A program made the position numbers and the translations under genes. The notes beneath the pieces are model-generated. The model had not been told where the DNA came from and did no database searches. It saw only the letters and a list, made by a program, of their open reading frames with translations. A stretch of 64,000 bases of DNA, taken from contig JAETRU010000012.1 of NCBI GenBank assembly GCA_021769965.1, forward strand, positions 1,215-65,214. Reading direction: 5' to 3'. This document shows, in pieces, positions 3,307 through 43,019 of the stretch; the stretch's first letter is position 1; every line of letters begins with the position of its first letter. The DNA is from Eubacterium sp. (GTDB taxonomy: Bacteria > Bacillota > Clostridia > Peptostreptococcales > Anaerovoracaceae).

Positions 3307-3444
3307 CGAACTCATATATAAGTGTACATATAATCGAAAAAATTCCTGAATATATGCACGTGTAATCACAAGGTCGTGCATATTTTAGGAGTTTTTTTGT
3401 TATATATGCATTTTGACATGATAAAAAATGAAGGGAGAGTGAAG

Positions 3445-4290
3445 ATGGAAGAGAGAATTCTGACTGTTGATTTGATTGAGGCATTTTGTACCTACTTGTA
3501 TCAGGAGGAGAAAAGCGAAGCAACCATTGAAAAATACCGTCGCGATGTAAAAAAATTTGCGGATTATTTAAACGGTGAAGCCGCAGTAAAGGAAAGGCTG
3601 ATTGCATACAAACAGTATTTAATTACGGAGGGCTATGCACTCAGCAGCGTCAATTCTATGCTGGTTGCAGTTAACAGCTTTTTTTCGTACGCAGGTTGGG
3701 AAGATTTGAGAATCAAACTGGTAAAAGTCCAAAAACAGATTTTTTGTGCAGAAGAAAAGGAACTGACGAGGTCGGAGTACTTACGCCTGGTAGATTGTGC
3801 GCGCAGGAGTGGAAAGGAAAGACTGGCGATGATCTTGTGGACTATGGGAACTACAGGAATCCGTATCAGTGAACTGAAGTTCATTACAGTAGAGTCAGTA
3901 AAACAAGGGAAACTGCAGGTGTGCAGCAAGTCAAAGAATCGAACTGTGTTTCTGGTAAAAAGGTTACGAAAAAAACTGCTTGCATACATAAAAAAGAAGA
4001 AAATTATATCTGGAAATATTTTTCTAACTCGCAGCGGGAGACCAGTCAATCGGACTAATATTTGGAAAGAGATGAAAACACTTTGTAAAGCAGCTGAGGT
4101 TTCAGAGAAAAAGGTTTTTCCGCATAACCTCCGGCACCTCTTCGCAAGAGTGTTTTATCAAGTGGAAAAGGATATCGCAAAATTGGCAGATATTCTGGGA
4201 CATAGCAGTATCAATACGACTCGGATTTATATGGCTTCATCGGGCTGTGAGCATCTGCGCTGCATGGAGAAAATGAAGATGTTGATGTGA
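3445..4290 (+). CDS. tyrosine recombinase (Xer/phage-integrase family), 281 aa
   Basis: Catalytic motifs GIRISEL, FPHNLRHLFA, LGHSSINTTRIY; ATG 3445 with GGGAGAG upstream. Confidence 0.93.
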   Translation: MEERILTVDLIEAFCTYLYQEEKSEATIEKYRRDVKKFADYLNGEAAVKERLIAYKQYLITEGYALSSVNSMLVAVNSFFSYAGWEDLRIKLVKVQKQIFCAEEKELTRSEYLRLVDCARRSGKERLAMILWTMGTTGIRISELKFITVESVKQGKLQVCSKSKNRTVFLVKRLRKKLLAYIKKKKIISGNIFLTRSGRPVNRTNIWKEMKTLCKAAEVSEKKVFPHNLRHLFARVFYQVEKDIAKLADILGHSSINTTRIYMASSGCEHLRCMEKMKMLM

Positions 4291-4299
4291 TAGATCAGA

Positions 4300-4327
4300 A
4301 TGCAACATAATTATGATTATGTTACAA
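4300..4327 (+). repeat. dif-like recombination site, left (IRL)
   Basis: ATGCAACATAA-TTATGA-TTATGTTACAA (11-6-11); right arm resembles the XerD arm TTATGTTAAAT; core 4306-4324 is the exact reverse complement of 4544-4562. Confidence 0.85.
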
Positions 4328-4351
4328 ATGTGTATAGCAACACATAAAAAG

Positions 4352-4380
4352 ATTATACTTTGAAATAGTGCAAAAATCAA
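4352..4380 (-). promoter_or_regulatory. sigmaA-type promoter inside the invertible segment, pointing away from the downstream operon
   Basis: Minus strand TTGATT (4380-4375)-17 bp-TATAAT (4357-4352); small IR ATGTGT-N6-ACACAT at 4328-4345 just downstream. Confidence 0.75.
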
Positions 4381-4540
4381 CATTTTCTGATAATATTTGT
4401 GACATTGATAGTTTTTTCTAATTTTGTCCATGACAAATAAGCTGTTTCGACTATTGCGGCATTAAATAACGAAAGAGCTTGTTTTGTTGTATCTGTAATT
4501 CTGTTTTGCAGTAATGGTTTTAGCTGAAAAAGAGTGCTAA

Positions 4541-4568
4541 TTATAACATAATCATAATTATGCTGTAA
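4541..4568 (-). repeat. dif-like recombination site, right (IRR), inverted relative to IRL
   Basis: Minus strand TTACAGCATAA-TTATGA-TTATGTTATAA; same 6-bp spacer as IRL. Confidence 0.85.
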
Positions 4569-4589
4569 TTGTTTTTTGAGGAGGATGAA

Positions 4590-5774
4590 ATGGCAAAGAT
4601 TGCAGATGTAATCAAGTATGAAGGAGATAACAGCACCTTTATATGGAAACATCCCAGTGAGGATTTTAACAGTTTGACACAACTGATTGTCCACGAAAGC
4701 CAGGAGGCTGTTTTCTTTATGAATGGACAGGCACTGGATTTATTCGGACCGGGCAGATATACATTGGAAACCCAGAATATTCCTAAGATCGGAAAACTCT
4801 TGAATCGCTCGACAGGAGATACAACGCCTTTTCACTGCGAGGTTTACTTTATTAATAAAACTGAACAGATGGCAATTAAGTGGGGTACTGACAGCAAAGT
4901 ACAGTACATAGAACCGACCTATGGATTTCCAATTTCTATCGGTGCTTCGGGCGAAATGAGTCTGCGGGTAGAGGATAGCAGAAAGCTTTTAATCAAGGTA
5001 GTAGGTACGGAGAGCTCTCTTGGTCAGCAGAATCTTACGACTTTCTTCCGTGGGTTTCTGATGGCTCGTGTAAAGACATATATCGCGCAGGTGATGAAGT
5101 CCAATGCGATTAATATCTTTGAAATTGACGAAAATCTGACTGTCTTTTCGGAAAACGTTCGGAATCTTTTAATAAATGATTTTGCTGATTACGGCGTCAG
5201 CCTGGAACGCTTTTTTGTAACCAACATTGTAAAGCCTGACGGTGAGCGACAGTTCGAAAAGTTCAAAGAACTGTATTTTCGCCAGTATGCTGATATTGCG
5301 GAGGCAAAGCTCCGTCAGCAGGTTGGAATCATCGACCAGCAGACCGAGGCACAGAAGATGGTGATTGAATCTCAGGCAATTGCGCAGAAACGAATGCAGG
5401 AAGGCTATACCTATCAGCAGGAAAGAGGTTTTGATGTTGCGCAGGACGCAGCTAAAAATGAGGCAGTAGGACAGTTTACCAATATGGGTATTGGACTTGG
5501 TGTCATGGGCGGCGTTGGCAGCAGTGTGGGCACTATGGTTGGCGGCGCAGTAAGCGGCGCTTTTGACGGAATGCAGGGTGTCGCAGCTGTACAGTCTGTA
5601 GGAAATACAGACACTTTTTGTGAAAACTGTGGTGCAAAGCTTGCTGCTGGTGCAGCATTTTGCGAGGAGTGCGGTATTGCCGTGCCTGTGGATACTTCAA
5701 AGTGTGTCGGCTGCGGGTTTGTCTTTGAACGTCCGGGTAAGTTCTGTCCAAAATGCGGTATGAAGAGAGGGTAG
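4590..5774 (+). CDS. SPFH/band-7 ('virion core protein'-type) protein with C-terminal double zinc ribbon, 394 aa
   Basis: LIVHESQEAVFF..GQALDLFGPGRYTL N-terminus, coiled middle, Gly-rich linker, CENC/CEEC/CVGC/CPKC; GAGGAGG RBS. Confidence 0.85.
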   Translation: MAKIADVIKYEGDNSTFIWKHPSEDFNSLTQLIVHESQEAVFFMNGQALDLFGPGRYTLETQNIPKIGKLLNRSTGDTTPFHCEVYFINKTEQMAIKWGTDSKVQYIEPTYGFPISIGASGEMSLRVEDSRKLLIKVVGTESSLGQQNLTTFFRGFLMARVKTYIAQVMKSNAINIFEIDENLTVFSENVRNLLINDFADYGVSLERFFVTNIVKPDGERQFEKFKELYFRQYADIAEAKLRQQVGIIDQQTEAQKMVIESQAIAQKRMQEGYTYQQERGFDVAQDAAKNEAVGQFTNMGIGLGVMGGVGSSVGTMVGGAVSGAFDGMQGVAAVQSVGNTDTFCENCGAKLAAGAAFCEECGIAVPVDTSKCVGCGFVFERPGKFCPKCGMKRG

Positions 5775-5778
5775 AAGG

Positions 5779-6486
5779 ATGAGTAAAAGATTTAAAATGT
5801 ACGCCTCCGTATGGGCGATTATGTTTATTGTATTTCAGATTATCTGTTTCGTAACGCCGACTGAGGCCGCAGGAATGAATAAATTCGGCGGCGCGTTTTG
5901 GGCAGGATATGTGTTTATCGATCTGGCTTTTGTCGGACAGCTGGTCTGCGCTTATATTGCACTGAAAGCAGAAAATATGCGGAAGCTGTTTTATAACCTG
6001 TCTCTGATTAATATCAGCTATACGGGACTTGTGCTTATGTTGATATGCGGTGCTGGAGTGATGATCGTGCCAGATATTCCAAACTGGGTTGGAATCATTC
6101 TATGTCTTCTAATTTTGGCCTTTACTGCAACATCCGTGATTGCGGCCAAAGCGACTGTGGATATTGTCGACCGCATGGACGATAAGTTAAAGGTTCAGAC
6201 CTTTTATATGAAAAATCTGCAGACAGAGGCGGAAACCTTGATGTCGCAGGCAAAATCGCCAGAAAGTAAAGCTGTTTGTAAAAAAGTCTACGAAGAAATT
6301 CGCTACGCTGATCCGATGAGCCACGAAGCTCTGACCACCTTAGAAGCACAGATTACTATTAAATTTGCAGAATTAAAAGAAGCCGTTGCCAGTGAAGATG
6401 ATTCGGCTGAGACTGTACAGCAATTGGCAAAAGAGGTAATTGTGCTGGTGCAGGAGAGAGGAAAGAAAGTAAAGCTGGTGAAGTAG
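5779..6486 (+). CDS. membrane protein, about 4 TM helices plus soluble helical C-terminus
   Basis: Four hydrophobic stretches in the N-terminal half; 4 bp after SPFH stop. Confidence 0.85.
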   Translation: MSKRFKMYASVWAIMFIVFQIICFVTPTEAAGMNKFGGAFWAGYVFIDLAFVGQLVCAYIALKAENMRKLFYNLSLINISYTGLVLMLICGAGVMIVPDIPNWVGIILCLLILAFTATSVIAAKATVDIVDRMDDKLKVQTFYMKNLQTEAETLMSQAKSPESKAVCKKVYEEIRYADPMSHEALTTLEAQITIKFAELKEAVASEDDSAETVQQLAKEVIVLVQERGKKVKLVK

Positions 6487-6487
6487 G

Positions 6488-7696
6488 ATGGGGAAAAGAG
6501 TATCTTTTTTATTTGGTTCAGGTGCGGATACTGCTGCATGCAAGAAGTTGAAATCAGGTGACTCTTTTGCTGAAGCGTTGCTATTGGGGAAATATAGAAA
6601 AGAAAGAAAAGAATTATTAGGTGAGGACTTTGCAGAATATCAACTTATATATCCACAGAGTAGCAAGGTCTTTATTCAAAGTATTGTTGAAAATAAAGAA
6701 GAAGCGCAAAAAATTTTCCCTGAAAAATTTGATATTTGTTATAATTATGCAACCCAAAAAGAGGAAATAGATTATAGTGGTGTGATAAGACCAATGTGCA
6801 AAGACTTTTATGATATTATCCATAGTGAAGAACAAGAAGAGACGAAAGACATCAGGAACTTCTTTTTGAAAAAAGCCGTTTTCTTTGATTCGCTAGATGA
6901 AAAATTCAACTCATTAAGGGATATTGAATTTAATAAAAATGGAAAAAGAGTTATTAATGCGTATGTTACTATTTTTATTCTCATGTTCAAAAGCCTTTAT
7001 GATATACCTGAAGAGTTTCAATGGACATATGAAAACATATTCAACGTATTGAAGAAAGACTACGATATTTTGTCCGATATAACAAATGAGAATTATTATA
7101 GTATTGTAAAGAACAGTGGAATTTCGTGTAAAATTATCACAACAAACTATACTGAATTATCGGAGAAGCTAACAGAAAAACCAGTAACATACTTGCATGG
7201 AAAACTGAATTGGTTTGAGGATTTAAAGAATTTAACTGTTTATGATTGTACGAATAAAGAGGAACTGAATAAGATGAAACCTCTTATTAAATCTTGCTGT
7301 TTAATACCGTTTATATTAATACCTAGCGGAATCAAGCCAATCATATGCAAAAGACAAATCAAAGAATTTTATAAAATGATTGAGAAATTGGATAATAGCA
7401 ATATTCTATGTGTCGTTGGATACCGATTTAATAGTGAGGATAATCACATAAATTCAATTATTGCTGAGTGGATTAGAGAACCTAATCATCAGCTATTTTA
7501 TTTCAATTTTAATGAAGATGTAAGTTTTTCAAGATTAAGATGGGCGGACTTGTTTTCGATAAAAGATATAGAATATCGTGACAATTATGAGATAAATTTT
7601 ATAAAAATCGAAGAAAAAATTGTAAATATCATTGTAAATGAGAGCAATAGTATAAAGGCATTTTCTACATTTATGAATCAACTTGAAAGGAGTTAA
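6488..7696 (+). CDS. SIR2-like (SIR2_2-type) protein, putative NADase, 402 aa
   Basis: FLFGSGAD, IITTNYT, YLHGKL, ILIPS, VVGYRFNSEDNHIN motifs in sirtuin order; very AT-rich. Confidence 0.75.
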   Translation: MGKRVSFLFGSGADTAACKKLKSGDSFAEALLLGKYRKERKELLGEDFAEYQLIYPQSSKVFIQSIVENKEEAQKIFPEKFDICYNYATQKEEIDYSGVIRPMCKDFYDIIHSEEQEETKDIRNFFLKKAVFFDSLDEKFNSLRDIEFNKNGKRVINAYVTIFILMFKSLYDIPEEFQWTYENIFNVLKKDYDILSDITNENYYSIVKNSGISCKIITTNYTELSEKLTEKPVTYLHGKLNWFEDLKNLTVYDCTNKEELNKMKPLIKSCCLIPFILIPSGIKPIICKRQIKEFYKMIEKLDNSNILCVVGYRFNSEDNHINSIIAEWIREPNHQLFYFNFNEDVSFSRLRWADLFSIKDIEYRDNYEINFIKIEEKIVNIIVNESNSIKAFSTFMNQLERS

Positions 7697-7703
7697 TCTA
7701 ATA

Positions 7704-10208
7704 ATGTCAATATTCAAATGCAAAATGTGCGGCGGTACACTGGAAATCACAAATAATGAAACTGTAGCAGTCTGTGAGTACTGCGGCACTAAGCAGACTT
7801 TACCAAAACTTGATGATGAAAAACGCGCTAATCTTTACGACCGTGCAAACCATTTCAGACGTAGTAACGAGTATGATAAAGCGATGGGAATTTATGAACA
7901 GATTCTTAACGAGGACAGCACGGATGCAGAAGCGTACTGGTCGCTGGTGCTTTGCCGCTATGGTATTGAGTATGTAGAAGATCCAGCTACTCACAAGCGC
8001 GTGCCGACAGTGAACCGTGCACAATATGCTTCTATTTTCACTGATGAAGACTATAAAGCGGCATTACAACATGCTGACGGATATCAGAGGGTAGTTTACG
8101 AAGAAGAAGCGCAGGCAATCGACAATATCCAGAAAGGTATTCTTGCTATATCACAGCGTGAAGAACCTTTTGACGTGTTTATTTGCTACAAAGAAACGGA
8201 CAATCAAGGACGGAGAACGCCTGACTCTGTGCTTGCCAACGACCTGTATCATCAGCTGACACAGGAGGGCTTTCGCGTATTCTTTGCGAGAATTACCTTG
8301 GAGGATAAGCTGGGTTCTGCATATGAGCCGTACATATTTGCAGCATTGAACTCCGCAAAGGTTATGGTTGTGCTTGGAACAAAGCCAGAGCATTTTCAGG
8401 CTGTATGGGTAAAAAATGAGTGGAGCAGATATCTTTCATTAATTAAGAATGATGCTAAGAAAATGCTGATTCCAGCTTACAAGGATATGGATCCATATGA
8501 TTTACCGGAAGAATTTTCTCATCTGCAAGCACAGGATATGTCCAAGCTTGGCTTTATGCAGGATTTGATTCGTGGAATTAAGAAAATTACGGCGTTAGAA
8601 AAACCAAAGACTACAGCAAAGGAAACCGTAGTCGTAAGCAGTGCCGCCGGCAATGCAGAATCGCTATTAAAGCGTGCCTTTATGTTTCTTGAAGATGGTG
8701 ATTTTGCAAGTGCAAACGAATACTGTGAGAAAGTGCTGGATTTAGATCCAGAAAATCCAAGAGGCTATCTGGGCAAACTGATGGCAGAGCAGAATGTCAG
8801 AACAAAAGAAGCCTTGAAAGATTGTAAAGAATCCTTTGAGGAAGCGAATAACTATCAGAAGGTGGTTCGCTTTGGTGATGCTGCTTTAGTTGCTGAACTA
8901 CAAGGATATGTTAAATATATCAATGACAGAAATGAACTGGATAGAAAGATGTTTGCTTATGATACTGCAAAATCTTTAATGGAAAGGGCTAAAAGTGAAA
9001 ATGATTTCAAAGAAGCTGCAGAAAAATTCCAGATAGCAGCAGGTTATGAGGACGCAGATAATTTGGCTGATGAATGTCTGGAAAAGGCAGAAATTGCAAG
9101 GAAAGATGCGATCTATGATGCCGCACAGATGCAGATGAAAAGAAATACAATTTCTGATTATGAGAAAGCAATAGAAGGATTTCAGAGTATTGTAGACTGG
9201 AAAGACTCAGAAGAACAGAAAGTTGTTTGTCAACAGGCGTTATCCAAACTTCAGGCTGAACGAGAGGTGAGGAGTAAGACAACTAAAAAATGGATTAAAA
9301 TATTAGTTCCTCTGGCAATTATATGTGCTGTTTTAGGAATTGTCGTAAAAACGATAATTATACCAGAAAGTCAATATAAAAACGCAATAAGTTTAATGGA
9401 GCAAAACCAATACGAAAAAGCAATTAAAGAGTTTGAAAAGCTTAATGGATACAAAGATAGTAGAAATAAAATCAGTGAAGCAGAAGAATTGTTTTTAGAA
9501 AACAAATACCAATATGCGGTTGAATTATATCAGAATAAAGAATTTGAAAAGGCCAGGAAAGAATTTGAACTGTTAGGCGATTATAAGAACTCTAAAGTTT
9601 TAATTAAGAAGTATTTAATGGAAAGTGGAGTGGATTACTCTAAAATAGGTGATTCCTATTATTTTGGATCTTATGAACAAGATAATGATAGGAGTAATGG
9701 CAAAGAGAAAATAGAGTGGCTTATTATTGAAAGAAATGATAACAAGGCATTATTAATTAGCAAGTATGTATTGGACTATAGAAAATATAATAGTGACGCT
9801 GTTGTTGTAAAGAGCCTCAACGATTACGATGAAACAACAGGAACAATGAGCTGGGAACAGTGTGATTTAAGAAGTTGGCTTAATAATGAGTTCCTAAAAA
9901 ATGCATTTACTTTAAAAGAAAGAAATCAAATACGAGATGATATTTTTATCCTATCATCGAATGAAGTTGAAAAATATTTCCCTTCGAGCGAACTTAGGGT
10001 TTGTGAGCCAACGGTTTATGTAAAGAAAAAAGGTGTTAAGACAAATTCTTATGGGAAATGCGATTGGTGGCTAATAGCTAGTGAGAGTATAGAATCTTCA
10101 TATAGATTATCTACATCAATTGTGTCTGGTGTTGGAGAAATTTCTAAAGCGGGTGTTGATTCACAAATTGGTGTTCGCCCAGCCATCTGGCTTGACCTTG
10201 CTAAATAA
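7704..10208 (+). CDS. Zn-ribbon/TPR/TIR/TPR/TM/DUF6273-like multidomain membrane protein, 834 aa
   Basis: CKMC..CEYC; TPR helices; TIR FDVFICYK...VWVKNEW with the conserved Glu; one TM (ILVPLAIICAVLGIVV); C-terminal IEW...LLISKY...W..CDLRSWLN...WWL...GVRPAIWLDL. Confidence 0.85.
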   Translation: MSIFKCKMCGGTLEITNNETVAVCEYCGTKQTLPKLDDEKRANLYDRANHFRRSNEYDKAMGIYEQILNEDSTDAEAYWSLVLCRYGIEYVEDPATHKRVPTVNRAQYASIFTDEDYKAALQHADGYQRVVYEEEAQAIDNIQKGILAISQREEPFDVFICYKETDNQGRRTPDSVLANDLYHQLTQEGFRVFFARITLEDKLGSAYEPYIFAALNSAKVMVVLGTKPEHFQAVWVKNEWSRYLSLIKNDAKKMLIPAYKDMDPYDLPEEFSHLQAQDMSKLGFMQDLIRGIKKITALEKPKTTAKETVVVSSAAGNAESLLKRAFMFLEDGDFASANEYCEKVLDLDPENPRGYLGKLMAEQNVRTKEALKDCKESFEEANNYQKVVRFGDAALVAELQGYVKYINDRNELDRKMFAYDTAKSLMERAKSENDFKEAAEKFQIAAGYEDADNLADECLEKAEIARKDAIYDAAQMQMKRNTISDYEKAIEGFQSIVDWKDSEEQKVVCQQALSKLQAEREVRSKTTKKWIKILVPLAIICAVLGIVVKTIIIPESQYKNAISLMEQNQYEKAIKEFEKLNGYKDSRNKISEAEELFLENKYQYAVELYQNKEFEKARKEFELLGDYKNSKVLIKKYLMESGVDYSKIGDSYYFGSYEQDNDRSNGKEKIEWLIIERNDNKALLISKYVLDYRKYNSDAVVVKSLNDYDETTGTMSWEQCDLRSWLNNEFLKNAFTLKERNQIRDDIFILSSNEVEKYFPSSELRVCEPTVYVKKKGVKTNSYGKCDWWLIASESIESSYRLSTSIVSGVGEISKAGVDSQIGVRPAIWLDLAK

Positions 10209-10266
10209 AAATAATTTCAATAAATTACGCTTACGGTATATTTGAAATTAACAAATAATTCATTAC

Positions 10267-10303
10267 AAATGGCACTATGCACTAGATTTGTATAGTGCCA
10301 TTT
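10267..10303 (+). terminator. stem-loop after the TIR gene (probable terminator and intron target)
   Basis: AAATGGCACTAT (10267-10278) / ATAGTGCCATTT (10292-10303) perfect 12-bp IR. Confidence 0.6.
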
Positions 10304-10309
10304 ATAGTG

Positions 10310-10420
10310 GAGTGCCGGGCATGACACAGTTCTAAGATGATCCTAAGCTCAGGTTGAGAGTCAGCACCACCAAAACAAAGGTCGTGAGACCTGCCAGGAG
10401 CAATTTCTTAGGTTTATCTT
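10310..10420 (+). pseudogene. group IIC intron relic (5' end plus reverse-transcriptase fragment)
   Basis: GAGTGCCGGGCATG resembles the IIC 5' end GTGTGCCCGGCATG, 6 nt after a stem-loop; frame from 10339 reads PKLRLRVSTTKTKVVRPARSNFLG, like RT domains 6-7. Confidence 0.55.
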
Positions 10421-10528
10421 CTGAAAAGACAGGGAATGTCTATATATAGTTGTTGCTATTTTCAAAACTGTGTGCTACAATAACTGCGTACATTATTTAT
10501 TTTTTGCGTGTGGAAAGTTGGTGTCTGC

Positions 10529-11134
10529 TTGAGTAAAAAAGAAATTTTGAAAACGGTAATTGAAAATAACGGCGGCATTGCAAAAACTTCGGATTTTGCC
10601 ACTAACGGTATAAATAAATACGAGGTAGCGGCTTTTTGTAAAGAAGGAGTCATTGAAAGAATTCGCAGAGGATTTTACCAGCTCCCCCAAAGTAAAAGCA
10701 TTACCGAAGAACAGCTCATACGGGAGCTTCTTCCGCAGGGAATTATTTGTGTGGAGTCCGCTTTGTTTCACTACGGATATAGTGATTTTTCTCCCCGTGA
10801 ATGGACGATTGCTGTACCAAGAACAGCGTCCCGTGTTGTAAAGAACATTGAAGAATTTCCGATGAAAGCTTACTATATTCAAAAAAGCTTTTTAGATATA
10901 GGTAAGTCCACAGGCAATTTTAACGGTGTAATATTGTCTGTGTATGATCGTGAGCGAACAATATGTGATTGCTTTAAGTACCGCACTAAACTTGACAACG
11001 AAATTTTTAATAAGGCTGTCAATGCCTATGCTGCTGACGAAAAAAAGAATCTTGCAAATTTGTCTAAATACGCAAAGGAAATGAAGCTTTATACAAAGAT
11101 TATGAATGTAATGGAGGTGCTGCTTAATGGCTGA
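10529..11134 (+). CDS. abiEi: type IV TA antitoxin, AbiEi family
   Basis: N-terminal wHTH (IERIRRGFY), GIICVESALFHYG, YDRERTICD; overlaps the toxin start. Confidence 0.85.
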   Translation: MSKKEILKTVIENNGGIAKTSDFATNGINKYEVAAFCKEGVIERIRRGFYQLPQSKSITEEQLIRELLPQGIICVESALFHYGYSDFSPREWTIAVPRTASRVVKNIEEFPMKAYYIQKSFLDIGKSTGNFNGVILSVYDRERTICDCFKYRTKLDNEIFNKAVNAYAADEKKNLANLSKYAKEMKLYTKIMNVMEVLLNG

Positions 11135-12026
11135 TATAGCTGCGTCCGTGCTGGCACGGCTCAAAAACAAAGCTGCTGAAAACGGCAGAAGCTATCAGCT
11201 CTGCCTGCAGCTCTTTTGCCAAGAGGAATTCTTGCGCCGTTTGGAAAAGTCTAGGTATGCTGAAAACCTCGTGTTGAAAGGCGGCTTGTTCCTCTATTCC
11301 CTCACTGACTTTGACAGCCGGGTAACGGTTGATGTTGATTTTTTGCTTCGGAAAATGCCCAATACACCGGAGCAGTTAAAGGGTATACTTGAGGAAATTA
11401 TTGCGGTTCATACCGGCAATGATTTTATTACCTTTGAGATAAAGGATGTTGCACCTATTGCTGCTCAGAAGAAATATGCCGGTATAGGTGCATCAATAGT
11501 TGCTCGTGTAAAAAACACACGCACACCCTTTGGCATTGACTTCGGCGTTGGGGATGTTATCGTGCCGAAACAGGAAAAAAGAAAGATTCCCACTCAGCTT
11601 GATGATTTTGCTGCACCTACAGTTAATACTTATTCCATTGAAACGACTGTTGCTGAGAAAATTGACGCGATCCTCAGCCTGATGGAGTTCTCCAGCCGCA
11701 TGAAAGACTATTACGATATTTATTATCTTGCCAATAAGTTTGACTTTGACGGTATGGTGCTGACCGAAGCACTCAGAAGAACCTTTGCGAACCGTGAGCA
11801 CAATTTTACGGGAGAACAGTTTGAACAGGTTATGGGCTTCGATGGAGATACGGCAATGCAGAAGAAATGGAAAGCCTTTGTCCGTAAAATCGACACGAAA
11901 ACCGATGATTACAGTACCGTGTTGAAAATAATAAAGGCTTTCCTGACAAAACCGTTTACTGCGGCGACCAGCGGTAAAGAATTTACTGAAAAATGGTCTG
12001 CAATTAATGGCAAATGGATGCAATAG
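11127..12026 (+). CDS. abiEii: nucleotidyltransferase toxin, AbiEii family
   Basis: VLKGG, RVTVDVDF, ETTVAEKIDA, SRMKDYYD motifs. Confidence 0.88.
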   Translation: MADIAASVLARLKNKAAENGRSYQLCLQLFCQEEFLRRLEKSRYAENLVLKGGLFLYSLTDFDSRVTVDVDFLLRKMPNTPEQLKGILEEIIAVHTGNDFITFEIKDVAPIAAQKKYAGIGASIVARVKNTRTPFGIDFGVGDVIVPKQEKRKIPTQLDDFAAPTVNTYSIETTVAEKIDAILSLMEFSSRMKDYYDIYYLANKFDFDGMVLTEALRRTFANREHNFTGEQFEQVMGFDGDTAMQKKWKAFVRKIDTKTDDYSTVLKIIKAFLTKPFTAATSGKEFTEKWSAINGKWMQ

Positions 12027-12101
12027 GATGTAGCTGTTCGGCCACGTCTTCACGCTCTGCCATCTGATTTAGCAGAGCTGACAGATCCCGCCGAAAAACA
12101 C

Positions 12102-13331
12102 TTACGACTTTTTGATTTGAACCTTCTCGATTTCTCCCGCCAGTTCAAATCCTTTTTTGGCGGCGATTACAGCGATGATCTCATTGATTACAGCGGCAGC
12201 GGCGATGGTTCCCTGCAGGATGCCGACAAGGGCAGGCTGCGATGCCAAAGTAGCGCAGGCGATTCCGGTAAAGACGAGGGAAACACCGGAATGGGGCAGC
12301 AGGGTAAGGCCGAGATATTTCTGTACGGTTTCGGGCATTTTAGTTGCTTTTGCGCCAAACCTGGCTCCGAAATATTTTCCGGCGCCTCTTGCCGCGATAT
12401 ATAAAACAGTGTAGGATCCGGCGCCGAGAATCAAATGATAGTTCAGCGGAGCGCCGAGGTCAACAATGGCGGCCAGCAGACTGACCGCAAGGACAGGGTG
12501 AAAATAGTCTGTGATTTCTTCCAACCGCTCTTTATCGACCATATTGGTAAATACAGCCGAGAAGGAAACCCCCATCAGCATATAGTTCAGCGTAATGCCG
12601 GACAGTATTTTTGTATTTATGAACCAGCCAATGCCGGCTGTCAGTGTGATGCCGCAAAGCAAAACGATTAATGTCTGCCCGCGGCCGCATCCTCTGCTTA
12701 ACAGCCTGCCTGCGGGAAGTCCTGTTACAAGGCCGATGATGACCGGCAAAAGGACCATCACGGGAATCATATACAGAGGAACCGTGCCGCCGGATACGGA
12801 GCTGGCCACAACGGAATTGACCGTGAAGAATACAATGATCGCCACGATATCATCTAACACTGCCATTGGCAGCAATGTGCTGGTTACAGGTCCTTTTGCG
12901 TGAAATTCATTTACAATGGATAACGCAGGCGCAGGCGCGGTAGCCAGTGCGATCCCGCCGAAGATGAAGGCGAGGAAAACAGGCACGCCCGCCGCGAGAA
13001 ACGCGATTCCAAAGACGATCGTGATGAAACAGAAAGTGCCTAAAGACTGAGTCAATGTAGTGATGATCAGTCCTTTGCCGTAGGTTTTGAGTTCTTTCCA
13101 TACGAGTTCTGTTCCGAGCATCAGACCAAAGGCGCACTGCATCCACATGATAACGGTCTTATACCATCCGGCAGTGAGGATAGAATCCGGCATGAGTCCG
13201 AGCGCGTGCGGTCCGAATATCATACCGATGATCAGCCATCCTAAAATAGAAGGAAGCTTGATTTTAGAAAACAGTTTGCCGGTAAACAGCGCCAGCGCAA
13301 GTACGAGCAGCCATCGAAGCAGTTGTATCAT
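12102..13331 (-). CDS. cation:proton antiporter (CPA2/Na+/H+ exchanger family)
   Basis: About 12 TM segments; ATAPA and AVLDD motifs. Confidence 0.85.
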   Translation of the reverse strand: MIQLLRWLLVLALALFTGKLFSKIKLPSILGWLIIGMIFGPHALGLMPDSILTAGWYKTVIMWMQCAFGLMLGTELVWKELKTYGKGLIITTLTQSLGTFCFITIVFGIAFLAAGVPVFLAFIFGGIALATAPAPALSIVNEFHAKGPVTSTLLPMAVLDDIVAIIVFFTVNSVVASSVSGGTVPLYMIPVMVLLPVIIGLVTGLPAGRLLSRGCGRGQTLIVLLCGITLTAGIGWFINTKILSGITLNYMLMGVSFSAVFTNMVDKERLEEITDYFHPVLAVSLLAAIVDLGAPLNYHLILGAGSYTVLYIAARGAGKYFGARFGAKATKMPETVQKYLGLTLLPHSGVSLVFTGIACATLASQPALVGILQGTIAAAAVINEIIAVIAAKKGFELAGEIEKVQIKKS

Positions 13332-17657: not shown

Positions 17658-18689
17658 GTGGAAGTATTAGAGTTAGAGCAGAAGAAGAGATACCTGATAG
17701 AAAAAGTCAGCCGTAACTCCGATAAACGATATGGACAGGATGAAAAAACATCTGAAGTCTGGCAGGCTTACGCGATGGCAAGCCGGCAGGGGAAAAGTGT
17801 TTATCAAAGCTTTTCTGATGAAGAGCTGCTCGCTTATTTGAGAACTCTGGCCGGGGAACTGGGCCATGGGCCTGCACAGGCAGAGGTTTTCTGGGTATTG
17901 CGGGACTACATCAAACACAGGTTTGGCAAATGGCCTTATGCGCTGCGCGCAGCCGGACTTTCCGCGTCGGCAGGCAGAGGCGGGAAAACCATGGAGCAGA
18001 TGGAAAAGGAGAAACAGCACAAGGCATCCCTTCTTGCCGCAGTCAGGAAAAAAGCGATGGAGCTTGGCAAAATTCCGCATCCGGGAGACTTACCGGAGGT
18101 CTGTGAAGAGCTGAAAAAGTATTACAGCGGATGGACTTCTGTAATCAAGGCAGCAAAGCTGGATTCTGATTTTTTTAAGAAAGCGGTCCATAAGATCCCT
18201 GATCTGGAAACAGAATATGTGGATATGCTGGAAAAGGTAAAGAATTTTGCCTATGAAATAGGAAGAAGCCCTCTTCATGGAGAGATCGATCCGGCCGTGA
18301 AACAGGCGCTTATAGAAAGGTGCGGTTCCTGGCGCAACGCGCTGTATCAGATCGATCTGGAACCGGTACTGCGGATGGAGCCTTTTCATGACATTTACAT
18401 CGATCATAGAATGGCGGAAAACAGAAAGTGTCATTCTGACAGCCTCTACGGATGTTATTATAAAGTCCTGAATCTGGATGAAAGTGACAGAAAACGTCTT
18501 GCGAAGGTCAGAAACCGCTATCTGCGGGATGGGAAAATTCCGATGAAAAAAGAAGTACCCAAACAGCTCCGGCAGGATCTGCAGGAAAAATGCGGATCCT
18601 GGGGAAATGTACTGTATCAGATCGGCGTTACGCCGAAAGAGTATTATTTGGAAAAGCATAAAAAGAAAAACATTGTTCGTGAAAAGTGA
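17658..18689 (+). CDS. protein of four homing-endonuclease-associated-type helical repeats, no nuclease domain seen, 343 aa
   Basis: Repeats ending RFGKWPYALRAAGL, YYSGWTSVIKAAKL, RCGSWRNALYQIDL, KCGSWGNVLYQIGV, each preceded by a helix and G..P; GAGGTG RBS, GTG start. Confidence 0.75.
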   Translation: MEVLELEQKKRYLIEKVSRNSDKRYGQDEKTSEVWQAYAMASRQGKSVYQSFSDEELLAYLRTLAGELGHGPAQAEVFWVLRDYIKHRFGKWPYALRAAGLSASAGRGGKTMEQMEKEKQHKASLLAAVRKKAMELGKIPHPGDLPEVCEELKKYYSGWTSVIKAAKLDSDFFKKAVHKIPDLETEYVDMLEKVKNFAYEIGRSPLHGEIDPAVKQALIERCGSWRNALYQIDLEPVLRMEPFHDIYIDHRMAENRKCHSDSLYGCYYKVLNLDESDRKRLAKVRNRYLRDGKIPMKKEVPKQLRQDLQEKCGSWGNVLYQIGVTPKEYYLEKHKKKNIVREK

Positions 18690-39970: not shown

Positions 39971-40056
39971 GGGCTAACAGGCTGGATTCTACTTTTAAGG
40001 GGTGTTCATCTGTTCAAATAACAGATATAATTACTTTGAAGGGAGGCAGCATCAGC

Positions 40057-40956
40057 ATGGATCTTATCAAAATAGGAAAGCATATTGCAGAGAAGCGAAA
40101 AGACTTAGGATTAACGCAAAAACAGCTCGCGGAGAAACTGGGCATGAGTGATAAATCCGTTTCCAAGTGGGAACGGGGCATATGCCTGCCGGACGTATCG
40201 GTCTATATGGAGTTATGTAATATCCTTGGGATCAGCATCAATGAATTCCTGGCCGGGGAAGATATCAAAGAGGAAGATATAGCAAAGCGGTCTGAAGATA
40301 ATCTGATTCAGATCACAAAGGACAGCAGACACAGGCAGAAGAATCTCAAAACCATCATAGCTGTTCTGATCATCATTACGATGATCGCGGTTGTTTCACT
40401 GGGAACTGTTATATTCCGCAGTTCAAGTCAGCCGCAGAATTACATCACCGCTTTTGACCGGGACAGCGCGGAGATGAAGACGGCACAGCTATTGTCCGGC
40501 ATAGACGGCGCGCTGCTTTTCAGATATTATTCAAAAGAAGAATTTAAGCAGCTGACGATATACATGTCCGAATACCGGTCAGGAAAGCTGATAACAAAGG
40601 AGTGTGCTGCGTCTTTCTCATATGAAGACATTGATTCTGCATCAGAGGGTATCATCGCCATTGTACCGGATTTTGAAGATTTTACGGTCAAGCTGGTCGT
40701 CGCAGATCAATCTGGCAGCGTTTCAACGGATATTCCGATTCTGGAGAATGTAAAGGACAGAGAATACTACGGAAGATCAGCTGTGCAGATCGAAGAAGCG
40801 GTCCCGATTCAGTATAGTGAAGAGCAGGGGCTGGCGGCGCTAATATACGGCAAAGACGGGCTGCATGCCAGTCCTGTTTCTGACATGGAAAGCGGGAATT
40901 TTGATACCGATAATGATTATGTCTACTATTTCTCATTTCAGTTTGAAAAATATTGA
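40057..40956 (+). CDS. membrane-anchored XRE-family HTH protein with C-terminal extracellular domain
   Basis: RKDLGLTQKQLAEKLGMSDKSVSKWERG HTH; one TM (IIAVLIIITMIAVVSLGTVIF). Confidence 0.88.
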   Translation: MDLIKIGKHIAEKRKDLGLTQKQLAEKLGMSDKSVSKWERGICLPDVSVYMELCNILGISINEFLAGEDIKEEDIAKRSEDNLIQITKDSRHRQKNLKTIIAVLIIITMIAVVSLGTVIFRSSSQPQNYITAFDRDSAEMKTAQLLSGIDGALLFRYYSKEEFKQLTIYMSEYRSGKLITKECAASFSYEDIDSASEGIIAIVPDFEDFTVKLVVADQSGSVSTDIPILENVKDREYYGRSAVQIEEAVPIQYSEEQGLAALIYGKDGLHASPVSDMESGNFDTDNDYVYYFSFQFEKY

Positions 40957-41111
40957 ATCGCGTGCGTTGCAGTAAGCTGTGCGTAAAGCTCGATCAGGAA
41001 CTGAGCAGAGGTTTTAGAACGGCCTTTACTCAGTTTTTTAGTGCGCTAAATTTTTATGCAGGTGAGTTTTTCTGTGATATCTTTCAAATAGGTATTAGAT
41101 ACAATCTGTGC

Positions 41112-41380
41112 CGCCGCTTTTTTTGCTTTTTGGCGCTTATACGGCGTTGCCTGACTGTCGCGCGCCGCTTTTTCGCAGTATTTTACGGATATACGGCGCG
41201 AAAAGACAGATGTAAGCTTGCTTTTACTTTTTCTTTACAGCTGCATGGAGCATACAGACTGAAAATATCTGTACAGCAGAGTGCAGCGCGCCGTATAGCC
41301 GCATTATGGATCATAAATGTAGCGTGAATCAGATAACGGGCGCCGTATGAGGCATTTTTTTCGCAAAAAATGGCGCGCAG
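41112..41380. repeat. non-coding palindromic element, copy B
   Basis: Units 41112-41146, 41163-41198, 41289-41324, 41341-41375; motif blocks align to copy A at constant offset 40109-40110. Confidence 0.78.
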
Positions 41381-41666
41381 TCGGTACAATACAAGAATTC
41401 TCCGCAGAAAAGATGGATCATTCTGTACGGCAGCAGGTTTTACATGGCGGCTGTAGAGTAGAAAACAGCAATTGACTGTGAACAGTAATATGTATGTAAA
41501 GGCATACACAAACTTTCCAACTTTTCTGTGGCATATCGCGGAAGAGTATGATAAAATATTCCTGTTAGTGTATATTAAGAAGAGAAACGAAAGCGCGTTT
41601 CCGCGTTTCAAAGAAGAGATTTCCAGACTACGTCTGATATATTATAACCAGGAGGAATGAAGAAAC

Positions 41667-43019
41667 ATGAAATTTTATCTCGCACTGTGGTTTGCGAAAC
41701 TGATCAACGTGATCATTAACATTGTGGACAAGAGCTGCGGATCCAACTTTTCCGGGGAGAAGGCCATGCGGATCGATCCGCAGATGGTAGCTCACTTTAA
41801 GGGGATCGACTATTCCAAGGTCCTTTTTATCACCGGAACCAACGGCAAGTCCACCACGAATAACCTGATCACTCATATTTTCCGTTCAAACGGCAAGAAG
41901 GTGGTGGCCAATCTGGAAGGAGCTAATCTGATCTATGGTGTGGCTACGGCTTTATCAAAGGCTTCTACGCTGACGGGCCGCATCAAGGCGGATTATATCA
42001 TCTTTGAGACGGACGAGCGGTATCTGCCGCTGATCCACAAGCAGCTGCCTGCCGGCAACATCATGATCACCAATCTGCAGAAGGATCAGGTGCAGAGAAA
42101 CGGAGACCCGGATTTCATTTACCGCAAGATCTTTGACGGACTGCCATCGGGAATCAGATTCTTCCTCAATAACGAAGAACCGAGGACCCGTTCTTTCGAC
42201 GCCAAGTCTGATCATATCGTTACCTACGGCGTGGAGCGTCATCCGGAATCCTTTACCAAAGGCGGCAGCTTTCCGACCATGGCGTGTCCGCGGTGCAGAC
42301 ACAAGATCGTCTTTGATTATTACAACAATGACGGCGTGGGAAAATTCCACTGCAGCCACTGCGATCTGGCCAGCAGCGAGAAGGCAGATTACACGATCAC
42401 TGATGTGGACTTTGCGGGCCGCAGCTTCAAGCTGGGCGATGTGGCGTTCACGATGCCGTACGATACGCCGTATATGTGCTATAATTACGCTGGGGCGCTG
42501 GCCGTGGCAAAGGAGCTGGGCGGCATAGAGCCTGCGGACGCAGCAAAGGCTTTCGGCAGCTTCAAAAATGTGGGCGGCCGGTTTGAGATCCTGAAATACA
42601 AGGATAAGACGATCAAATACATGCGTATCAAACAGGAAAATCCAGAGACGCTGCAGACCTGTATCAACGTTATGGCGGCGGATCCTGAGAAAAAGATGAT
42701 CTGCCTGGGGCTGTGTCCTCTCATCGACATGATCCCGCATTACACCAATTCTTTCTACGCGTTTGACTGCGATCTGTCTGAGCTGGTGAAATCTGATGTG
42801 GAAAAGTATTTCTGCTTCTCGGAAGCAGTCTGCTACGATACGGCAAACCGTCTGATCTATGAAGGAGTGGACCCGTCTGTGATCTCCATTGAAGAAACGG
42901 AAGAGGTGGAGACCATTTTCCGCCAGATCGAAGAAGCGGAGACAAAGAATATTTACCTGATCACATGGCTGCATACCTTTGATCATATGAAGAAGTACAT
43001 TGAAAAGGAGGGAAAATAA
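41667..43019 (+). CDS. murT: MurT-like Mur ligase (lipid II amidotransferase ligase subunit, divergent)
   Basis: ITGTNGKSTT P-loop, CPRC/CSHC zinc finger, VGGRFE; adjacent to gatD-like gene. Confidence 0.8.
   Translation: MKFYLALWFAKLINVIINIVDKSCGSNFSGEKAMRIDPQMVAHFKGIDYSKVLFITGTNGKSTTNNLITHIFRSNGKKVVANLEGANLIYGVATALSKASTLTGRIKADYIIFETDERYLPLIHKQLPAGNIMITNLQKDQVQRNGDPDFIYRKIFDGLPSGIRFFLNNEEPRTRSFDAKSDHIVTYGVERHPESFTKGGSFPTMACPRCRHKIVFDYYNNDGVGKFHCSHCDLASSEKADYTITDVDFAGRSFKLGDVAFTMPYDTPYMCYNYAGALAVAKELGGIEPADAAKAFGSFKNVGGRFEILKYKDKTIKYMRIKQENPETLQTCINVMAADPEKKMICLGLCPLIDMIPHYTNSFYAFDCDLSELVKSDVEKYFCFSEAVCYDTANRLIYEGVDPSVISIEETEEVETIFRQIEEAETKNIYLITWLHTFDHMKKYIEKEGK

Follow-up and report, generated by a model that had tools for sequence, protein, structure and literature searches.

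The stretch analysed here, referred to below as the window, comprises 64,000 nucleotides (nt) from Eubacterium sp. (NCBI GenBank assembly GCA_021769965.1, contig JAETRU010000012.1, positions 1,215 to 65,214 of the forward strand), and the element under study is a gene at 7704–10208 on its + strand that encodes a TIR receptor-like protein of 834 amino acids (aa). Translation starts at the ATG at 7704, inside an enclosing open reading frame (ORF) at 7683–10208 and with an AAAGGAG 11 nt 5′ of the start codon. The protein begins with a zinc ribbon (C6, C9, C24 and C27; 7719–7784, +), modelled as four short strands; a TIR domain (aa 154–299; 8163–8600, +) follows, with TPR motifs recognized by Pfam at aa 43–79 (TPR_14) and aa 318–351 (TPR_2) on either side of it. 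Next come a helical stalk predicted to be cytoplasmic (aa 390–534; 8871–9305, +), a single transmembrane (TM) helix (aa 535–553; 9306–9362, +; Kyte-Doolittle value 2.68), TPR-like helical repeats predicted to lie outside the cell (aa 556–640; 9369–9623, +) and a DUF6273 domain (aa 641–834; 9624–10205, +), with which the protein ends in ...GVRPAIWLDLAK. Both defining domains score well above the Pfam membership cut-offs: TIR_2 (PF13676) matches aa 158–281 with 42.7 bits (cut-off 28), and DUF6273 (PF19789) matches aa 679–834 with 56.4 bits (cut-off 23.5). A first-pass annotation, made from the letters of the sequence, had listed a zinc ribbon, TPRs, a TIR with the conserved glutamate, a single TM helix and a terminal DUF6273-like domain, and all of these are present, down to the C-terminal residues it had quoted.

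W235, N238, E239 and W240 of the TIR domain are invariant in all 73 aligned heads (the window protein and 72 relatives), as are the four cysteines of the ribbon. Sequence searches of the PDB with the whole protein and with a head profile returned mainly designed TPRs, and the TIR segment alone gave a chance match to an RRM; among TIRs, the top match of the TIR profile was TLR15/TLR2 (E 1.7e-4). We modelled the head (aa 1–360) from the alignment of 73 sequences (predicted local distance difference test, pLDDT, 78.1). Its aa 154–299 superimpose on the L6 TIR with Z 10.5 and a root-mean-square deviation (rmsd) of 3.5 over 132 aligned residues, and on RUN1 (Z 9.4), SARM1 (Z 9.0), the SPARTA TIR-APAZ protein (Z 8.8) and AbTir (Z 8.7), so that the modelled segment has the flavodoxin-like TIR fold. 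W235 and E239 sit in the modelled helix 234–248, which follows strand 220–224. TIR NADases such as SARM1, AbTir and plant TIRs carry their catalytic glutamate in the helix after strand C, in a W-x3-E type motif, and the W235-x3-E239 motif makes E239 the putative counterpart of that residue.

For the part C-terminal to the membrane helix (aa 557–834; alignment of 45 sequences, pLDDT 90.9), modelling yielded five helices (model residues 2–89, pLDDT 89–98) followed by an α/β globule, which we compared with structure representatives in an all-against-representatives search and, in addition, with Foldseek. The globule matched a solved DUF6273 domain (9qa6) with Z 15.1 (rmsd 3.1, 166 aligned residues, 22% identity), the C-terminal domain of Legionella Lcl with Z 8.2, Treponema TvpA, a classical variable protein of diversity-generating retroelements (DGRs), with Z 7.3, PvdO with Z 6.5 and several animal C-type lectin domains with Z 6.2–6.4. 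Foldseek agreed on a lectin-like globule; at E ≤ 1e-3 its matches included 16 models of viral proteins, for the most part DUF6273, tail or receptor-binding proteins of phages. As judged from the model, the DUF6273 domain of the TIR protein thus has a C-type-lectin-like fold, which bears out the earlier impression that the C terminus resembles CLec-like variable domains. DUF6273 tails also terminate Ser/Thr receptor kinases (Pkinase plus DUF6273 in P0245, P0249, P0251, P0261 and others); one outer module therefore serves receptors with different cytoplasmic output.

The first-pass annotation had placed a helical repeat after the membrane helix. Two copies of the motif Y/F-x-K/E-A-x3-F-x5-Y/W-K/E-D/N-S/A indeed lie there (aa 570 and 614), but two more precede the helix (aa 435 and 486). 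The repeat, a helical hairpin from which the stalk is built on either side of the membrane, is therefore not specific to the outer part.

The 15 residues preceding the TM helix contain six lysines or arginines and the 15 following it one. To compare this with the family, we used 80 relatives' loci, the best 80 of 297 stretches confirmed among 303 candidates in species genomes: 69 of the 81 ORFs (window and relatives) have one such helix, and in all 69 the K/R excess is on its upstream side. Because the TIR protein lacks a signal peptide, begins with a Cys4 ribbon and shows this charge bias, a single-pass, N-in, C-out (type-I) topology, with the TIR domain inside and the lectin domain outside, is well supported as a prediction. 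On these grounds, the earlier idea of a cytoplasmic TIR coupled to an external recognition module, a logic like that of Toll-like receptors (TLRs), gains predictive support. Two lines of literature also favour an outside placement of DUF6273: an IgA peptidase domain annotated as DUF6273 is N-terminal in a secreted, sortase/wall-anchored protein (PMC12402451), and DUF6273 occurs in phage receptor-binding proteins (PMC10743442, PMC11792537, bioRxiv 10.1101/2024.10.15.618418).

The best 80 loci come from Oscillospiraceae, Acutalibacteraceae, Ruminococcaceae, Lachnospiraceae and other Clostridia. A set of 5.8 billion proteins held at least 8000 candidates, all scored ones with E ≤ 0.001, and the best 120 of the 8000 scored candidates all combine TIR_2 with DUF6273. 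The head profile alone matched 4599 representatives (50% identity) at E ≤ 1e-30; among the matches listed, the head was N-terminal in 150 of 150, in proteins of 573 to 3073 aa. The family thus is a very large, receptor-like one of thousands of Clostridia proteins and apparently undescribed: the literature searched, with subscription journals and supplements outside its scope, contained no description of it, and supplements on DGRs may list TIR-bearing Firmicutes targets. At the level of the genome the gene is accessory and patchily distributed. The source genome has one copy, a head-bearing homologue was found in one of 25 same-genus genomes (G009, E 3e-177), and any match at all in 9 of 61 relatives, the source genome counted.

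Where the family is constant, it is strikingly so. Head identity to the window protein is 74–84% in 70 of the 72 relatives. Over aa 1–300 the closest proteins (P0003–P0005) are 94–97% and other relatives 75–91% identical to it; over aa 301–530 these values fall to 70–73% and 44–51%, and in DUF6273 to 38–55% and 37–44%. Third bases at four-fold sites of identical codons agree mostly to 20–40%, i.e. they are saturated, so the constancy of the head reflects strong purifying selection; a recent horizontal sweep as its source is ruled out by the same saturation. In two sequencing runs (X3 and X7), contigs of other organisms, with a depth of over 100 compared to about 6 for the strain, are 80–90% identical to head segments. 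They match only window 7604–7991 and 8186–8573 and then diverge, and hence represent other, more abundant family members in the same samples.

Behind this head, the tails differ in kind. Among 50 representatives selected by head score alone (every third of 148), 13 carry DUF6273, seven BspA-type leucine-rich repeats (LRRs) and three RCC1; PASTA, RHS, WG repeat, Listeria-Bacteroides repeat, YARHG, ankyrin and L12-C occur once each, and 20 have no Pfam domain other than TPRs. Of 23 ORFs that seemed to lack a DUF6273-like end, seven have RCC1 propellers and one has RHS repeats; four turned out to carry DUF6273, and 11 lack any further domain. An alignment of homologues, which the first-pass annotation had proposed as a check on its idea of an exchanged outer domain, therefore comes out as it had expected, with a conserved head and tails of different kinds (DUF6273, LRR, RCC1 and others).

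Phylogenetic comparison points in the same direction. The head tree comprises 73 rows, eight of the 81 ORFs (shortened or lacking the N terminus) having been left out. Tail labels were set on it by regular expression, and five loci labelled "other" (L006, L017, L034, L042 and L078) in reality carry DUF6273, which leaves the RCC1 count unaffected. The seven RCC1 tails are scattered on this tree and require six changes, at least four of them forced by starred branches alone; these six are no fewer than the changes in 113 of 500 label shuffles. For 43 DUF6273-type rows, the head alignment rejects the tail tree (log-likelihood difference 386, approximately unbiased [AU] test p 5e-91) and the tail alignment rejects the head tree (366, AU p 1e-62); the test sets each region's own best tree against the foreign one and is in this sense liberal, yet the differences are very large.

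Individual pairs of loci locate breakpoints. Two paralogues from one metagenome-assembled genome (L012 and L014) are 100% identical at the nucleotide level over nt 226–750 of the gene, then 62–69%, and unrelated upstream, which suggests gene conversion between paralogous heads. In the same two loci (L012:7001–7800 and L014:7001–7800), the flanks and stalks around the identical head segment are 40–69% identical. L005 and L007 share 84–94% identity up to about nt 900 and 79–85% up to about nt 1350, and their tails about 35%. L076, with an RCC1 tail, and L078, with a DUF6273 tail, are 78–86% identical in the downstream flank and 71–89% in the head, with tails at about 45%. These patterns support the view that tails have been exchanged by recombination within the family.

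Composition within the window gene had been read as a sign of such an exchange, the DNA appearing visibly more AT-rich from about 9290 onward. The shift is real, but a breakpoint analysis resolves it into two breaks, and the synonymous one lies elsewhere. At codon 522 (about nt 9270; 2/500 permutations), GC at first positions steps down from 0.538 to 0.394, so that the amino-acid break is at the TM helix. At codon 389 (nt 8871), third-position GC (GC3) declines from 0.406 to 0.256, a contrast that 0 of 2000 permutations reach; its location has a support interval of codons 316–398. This synonymous break is at the end of the conserved head, inside the cytoplasmic part and about 400 nt upstream of 9290. 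With amino acids held fixed, the 3′ part uses 99 G/C-ending codons among 430, compared to 168 expected from codon choice in the head; codon choice, and not amino-acid content alone, therefore differs between the two parts.

The same contrast recurs across the family. Of 64 loci, selected for ORFs of at least 600 aa and flanks of at least 3 kb, 59 have a lower GC3 in the tail than in the head (mean difference −0.10), and the contrast is therefore a family property rather than an event in the window gene. Regressed on flank GC, head GC3 has a slope of 1.53 and tail GC3 of 1.02. Candidate causes are younger tails drawn from an AT-richer pool, or selection or conversion regimes that differ between head and tail.

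Could the AT-rich 3′ part of the window copy nevertheless be a recently imported segment, recombined onto a resident head? The sharpness of the GC3 break and its coincidence with the end of the conserved head would fit, as would the shallower tracking of host GC by the tails and the recombination demonstrable elsewhere in the family. Two proteins with heads 97% identical to that of the window protein (P0004 and P0005) have tails of only 36–46% and 8–38% identity; such background-level values fit either a swap within a small clade or fast divergence to saturation, since rapidly evolving tails that saturate near 40% identity would leave the same profile. On the other hand, the contrast is shared by the family, the synonymous break falls in the cytoplasmic stalk and not at the membrane, and a search with the tail alone (aa 556–834) in the 5.8-billion protein set returned as the closest of 642 hits P0003 (57% identity), which is also one of the three closest heads. 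No donor for the window tail was found among these hits. An import into this copy thus seems somewhat doubtful to us. Of the swap proposed in the first-pass annotation, the general part stands for the family, on the evidence of trees, breakpoints and tail types, while a recent swap in the window copy is only a possibility, its closest tail and one of its closest heads belonging to the same protein.

In public sequencing data the majority sequence of the copy is stable. Four runs belonging to three studies, one of which may be that of the source, yielded Logan contigs with 0–1 differences over the tail and 0–3 per listed piece of the TIR copy, and one contig of 2894 nt covers 7281–10174; since Logan contigs drop rare variants, they report the stable majority sequence only.

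In two of the 80 relatives' loci, the lectin domain is a target of DGR diversification. L029 and L023 carry a DGR-type reverse transcriptase and a template repeat (TR) just downstream of the TIR gene. In L029, the variable region (VR, 6520–6646) and the TR (7213–7339) show 26 mismatches, of which 24 coincide with adenines of the template; for L023 the corresponding count is 16 of 17. Both variable regions are the last 127 nt of DUF6273 and correspond to aa 785–828 of the window protein. Inside this segment falls aa 797–826, the most variable stretch of the lectin domain in the family (2.2 bits, compared to 0.7–1.3 in its core); the linker that leads into it (aa 632–646) reaches 2.5 bits.

The source genome itself contains a single DGR, on another contig (C70), the template of which matches that contig's own variable region only. 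It is complete and lies in a prophage-like stretch (G000:C70:38849–42133), with a 428-aa target that ends in DUF6273, a VR (39995–40129), an Avd-like ORF (40188–40634), a TR (40656–40790) and a reverse transcriptase (40850–42133); 23 of the 24 VR/TR mismatches are at template adenines. The genome therefore holds the lectin fold twice, once in a hypermutated phage protein and once in a static TIR receptor. Action of a DGR on the window TIR gene is ruled out, as the best fit of the C70 template within 9501–10300 has 66 of 97 mismatches at positions other than adenine. A blastn search with the tail of the window gene found no repeat, and a local search for a template repeat in 4000–13000 gave short chance matches only.

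Upstream of the TIR gene, which comes last in its operon, lie three further genes on the + strand, spaced by 4, 1 and 7 nt. The first gene of this conserved operon (4569–5774) encodes an SPFH protein of 401 aa with no TM helix, a Band_7_1 domain (Pfam, 139.4 bits, E 1.6e-40) and a C-terminal double zinc ribbon (DZR, 2.5e-8). The second (5779–6486) encodes a protein of 235 aa with four hydrophobic segments (aa 7–25, 39–57, 79–97 and 104–122; hereafter 4-TM protein) and a soluble helical C-terminal half; it has no Pfam match above the curated cut-off (MFS_1, 19.3 bits vs 33.4) and none in PADLOC or NCBIfam. The third (6488–7696; 29.5% GC) encodes a divergent SIR2/AbiH-like protein of 402 aa, so classified from weak profile matches. 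By tblastn, the SPFH gene was found in 57 of the 80 loci, the 4-TM gene in 56 and both in 52, with the order SPFH, 4-TM, TIR in 46.

Between the 4-TM and TIR genes there is a position of varying content. Of 50 loci with the 4-TM gene upstream, 21 have a gap of at most 150 nt, and in 20 a gap of 300–2000 nt accommodates an ORF of 100 aa or more; larger gaps contain additional TIR-family paralogues. The 20 ORFs belong to DUF2971 (six), DUF4365 (two), stand-alone TIRs of 141 aa (two), HEPN-type proteins (four, one above and three below cut-off), a zinc-ribbon/RCC1 protein (one) and no Pfam family (five). Slot-bearing loci include L004, L005, L016, L019, L022–L024, L026, L045, L048, L051, L054, L058 and L069, along with window 6488–7696. 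By its appearance, the slot may be a place for interchangeable effectors or a hotspot embedded in the operon.

The occupant of the slot in the window is putatively a SIR2-like protein. It matches PADLOC SIR2 with E 9.9e-4 and no Pfam family at E ≤ 0.1, and its family profile matches the "SIR2-like domain-containing protein" of PDB 8w9l with E 1.2e-3. Nineteen of 39 relatives match SIR2_2 weakly (best E 4e-4), and in the alignment of these 39, G10, G12, N220, Y221 and G238 are invariant and H237 nearly so. None of its 226 relatives is named, and its atlas neighbours are SIR2-like and AbiH clusters. Thoeris-type SLOG or Macro domains were not detected in it. The gene also adjoins TIR-family genes in L073, L015 and G293, in the last case lying between two of them.

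All of this sits in a low-GC island of six genes (4569–12026, 29–45% GC) in a genome of 49.5% GC, the individual values being 45.4% (SPFH), 43.1% (4-TM), 29.5% (SIR2-like), 37.8% (TIR), 38.3% (AbiEi) and 44.0% (AbiEii). The last two genes, which overlap, form an AbiEi/AbiEii abortive-infection pair (10508–12026, +; PADLOC AbiEi 4.5e-62, AbiEii 1.7e-92) and are a neighbour in the same island, not part of the TIR module. A tyrosine recombinase gene (3376–4290) precedes the island, and a Na+/H+ exchanger and core-type genes at ≥ 50% GC follow AbiE. Between the recombinase and SPFH genes lies a 25-nt inverted repeat (4303–4327/4541–4565, 92% complementary), which may be an island border or an operator. 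Promoter-like sites in 4200–12200 numbered 33 (23.2 ± 4.7 in shuffles) and terminator-like sites seven (5.0 ± 2.4), counts too unspecific to delimit a transcript. Farther downstream, between cobalt-transport genes and cbiK, 17658–18686 encodes a 343-aa protein of homing-endonuclease-associated HNH_repeat units (E 6e-37).

From these observations we propose that the TIR protein is a type-I membrane receptor and the sensor of a surface-sensing TIR defence module held on an SPFH scaffold, a reading to which we assign a probability of roughly 0.55. Its near-constant head (zinc ribbon, TPR, TIR, TPR; aa 1 to about 355) would be cytoplasmic and would be joined through the stalk and the TM helix to the outer repeats and the lectin domain. 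The outer domain would bind a ligand exposed on a surface; the tail or a receptor-binding structure of a phage is the most plausible candidate, another foreign surface molecule a further one. Binding might cluster the receptor on the SPFH scaffold, upon which the TIR domains could assemble and cleave NAD+ or make a nucleotide signal. Arrest or death of the cell (abortive infection) would ensue, possibly via the slot gene, here the putative SIR2-like NADase. A bolder extension, which we hold only tentatively, would make the family a bacterial counterpart of TLRs, in which an outer lectin, LRR or propeller domain, shuffled and sometimes DGR-hypermutated, recognizes phage or other foreign surfaces before or at DNA entry, and an SPFH-held TIR head brings about NAD+-based arrest directly or through the slot effector.

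If correct, the proposal would mean that bacteria, like animals with their TLRs, possess a repertoire of receptors with which they survey their surface; under the bolder reading, immune sensing would take place outside the cell and use a repertoire diversified in the germline. To our knowledge, the known bacterial TIR systems (Thoeris, TIR-STING, SPARTA, and CBASS and Pycsar effectors) sense intracellular events. For DUF6273 and for SPFH scaffolds of the SamI type, a role open to testing would follow from the proposal, and the slot with its exchangeable SIR2-, HEPN- and nuclease-type genes would provide a handle on the downstream output of the receptor. The window operon is convenient to clone, since its TIR gene is intact, not hypermutated and nearly unchanged in contigs of four runs, and it includes the rare SIR2-like companion.

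Several points weigh against this proposal. The evidence for the module is computational throughout: domain content, modelled folds, the operon, the contrast of constant heads with shuffled tails and the DGR targets of two relatives are observations, and topology, enzymatic activity, ligand, defence role and the coupling to SPFH or SIR2 are inferences. The assignment of E239 as a putative catalytic residue draws on the motif and its invariance. The head, about 80% identical across Clostridia families, is unusually constant for an immune protein, and a housekeeping or regulatory role would fit such constancy; one helical repeat motif occurs on both sides of the membrane; and the tail of the window copy bears no sign of diversification, in the DGR fit or in the Logan contigs. 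None of 5027 PADLOC models matches the TIR, SPFH or 4-TM protein. Neither the SPFH nor the 4-TM gene was found in 19 of the 80 loci: nine of these have less than 1.5 kb and one has 2.7 kb of upstream DNA, and the other nine have at least 4.1 kb, so the link is not obligatory. Likewise, the genes in the slot could be independent cargo. The SIR2-like gene is rare (two of 80 loci, five of 399 genomes of the class), and 277 kb separate it from the TIR gene in G066.

In an alternative reading, which the extreme constancy of the head would fit, the operon performs envelope or membrane surveillance in the manner of B. subtilis SamGHI/YdjGHI with PspA; the outer domain would read the state of the wall or membrane of its own cell, with the TIR head as a regulatory output and not an anti-phage weapon. 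Its layout parallels that of YdjG, YdjH and YdjI as portrayed in the pertinent papers (PMC8581546, PMC9239133, PMC13713150), Band_7_1 matches are found in a B. subtilis control genome, and one relative has a PASTA tail. A gene present in one of 25 same-genus genomes, however, is accessory and lies here in a low-GC island beside AbiE; none of the six ORFs of 4569–12026 contains a PspA domain by Pfam; and the shuffled tails, hypermutated by DGRs in two relatives, fit varying foreign ligands and not the cell's own wall, as the HEPN, DUF4365, TIR and SIR2-type genes of the slot also speak for another function. We therefore consider envelope surveillance unlikely, though worth keeping in view.

To a similar degree we doubt that the TIR protein and its SIR2-like neighbour form a Thoeris-like pair, in which a membrane TIR would make a nucleotide signal and the SIR2-like protein would be the NAD+-depleting effector. 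The absence of the SIR2-like gene from 78 of 80 relatives implies that the TIR protein must work without it, and the two genes are far apart in G066. The tight packing in the window (1 nt after the 4-TM stop codon, 7 nt before the TIR ATG), the company of TIR-family genes in four arrangements (window, L073, L015 and G293), the invariant or nearly invariant GxG, TNY and H-G positions in 39 relatives and the SIR2-like and AbiH atlas neighbours all favour such a pairing; yet no SLOG, Macro or other signal-binding domain was detected in the SIR2-like protein, which matches no Pfam family, PADLOC reports no Thoeris match, and with 23.4 bits the Thoeris model ThcB4 of NCBIfam stays far below its cut-off of 220.

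A non-immune receptor or adhesin for host or dietary glycans that signals by TIR-TIR contacts with no enzymatic role, as the lectin-like fold, the gut habitat of the relatives and the presence of DUF6273 on receptor kinases and on a host-directed IgA peptidase (PMC12402451) might suggest, is very improbable in view of the invariance, throughout the 73 aligned heads, of Glu239 and the residues next to it, the NADase TIRs among the closest structural matches, the defence-island context and the contents of the slot.

We finally compare the proposed defence module with known systems. The closest precedent in concept is found in multicellular bacteria, for which one report describes DGR-diversified C-lectin sensors, mostly cytoplasmic and NTPase-centred, on STAND, CHAT and TIR proteins (PMC10907252). 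Common to both are a C-lectin-fold sensor joined to conflict-type effector domains including TIR, and adenine-directed rewriting, here in L029 and L023. As described there, those sensors are built around STAND, CHAT or MoxR NTPases of Thiohalocapsa and cyanobacteria, whereas the TIR lectin family lacks an NTPase, consists of single-pass receptors of gut Clostridia (as predicted) and is linked to SPFH and 4-TM genes, and the window copy has no DGR.

DUF6273 itself has been described as C-lectin-like and a DGR target in gut phages (PMC10743442, PMC11792537, bioRxiv 10.1101/2024.10.15.618418). Pfam family and fold of the window domain recur in the IgA peptidase of T. ramosa and in receptor-binding proteins of phages ("tentaclins", Mtd-like DGR targets); these are virion or secreted proteins, whereas here the domain is predicted to be TM-tethered to a cytoplasmic TIR head. 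The phage variable region is placed at the C-terminal end of the domain in two of these accounts (PMC11792537, bioRxiv 10.1101/2024.10.15.618418), and that of the tentaclins close to the gene's 5′ end in the third (PMC10743442).

With B. subtilis SamGHI/YdjGHI (the pspA operon), the window operon shares the adjoining genes of a soluble Band_7_1 SPFH protein with a zinc finger (DZR), a multi-pass (4-TM) protein and a zinc-ribbon membrane protein. YdjI/SamI is reported to be a soluble protein of the band-7 type that bears a zinc finger at its C terminus, YdjH to be a membrane protein and YdjG a membrane protein with a zinc ribbon (PMC8581546, PMC9239133, PMC13713150). Unlike YdjG, the zinc-ribbon protein of the window carries a TIR domain, TPRs and a large ectodomain, and the parallel is one of layout.

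In common with Thoeris (the TIR protein ThsB and the SIR2 protein ThsA), the window has a TIR protein beside a SIR2-like gene in a defence island and, by analogy, a likely output through TIR-based NAD+ chemistry. It differs in that its TIR protein is predicted to span the membrane and to carry an outer sensor, in the lack of a detected SLOG or Macro domain in the SIR2-like protein and in the restriction of the SIR2-like gene to two of 80 loci; together with the profile scores given above, this sets it apart from Thoeris.

Animal TLRs, finally, combine a variable ligand-binding ectodomain, one TM helix and a cytoplasmic TIR, the arrangement predicted here, and LRR ectodomains occur in seven of the 50 surveyed relatives of the TIR protein. 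The window protein is nevertheless no TLR: its TIR is N-terminal and its ectodomain C-terminal, it has no signal peptide, its ectodomain is lectin-like (DUF6273) rather than LRR, its head includes a zinc ribbon and TPRs, and its gene shares an operon with those of the SPFH and 4-TM proteins. In TLRs the TIR domain serves as a scaffold; the window TIR, by contrast, retains the NADase-type glutamate motif. The resemblance to TLRs is one of logic and is not evidence of common descent of the whole receptor.

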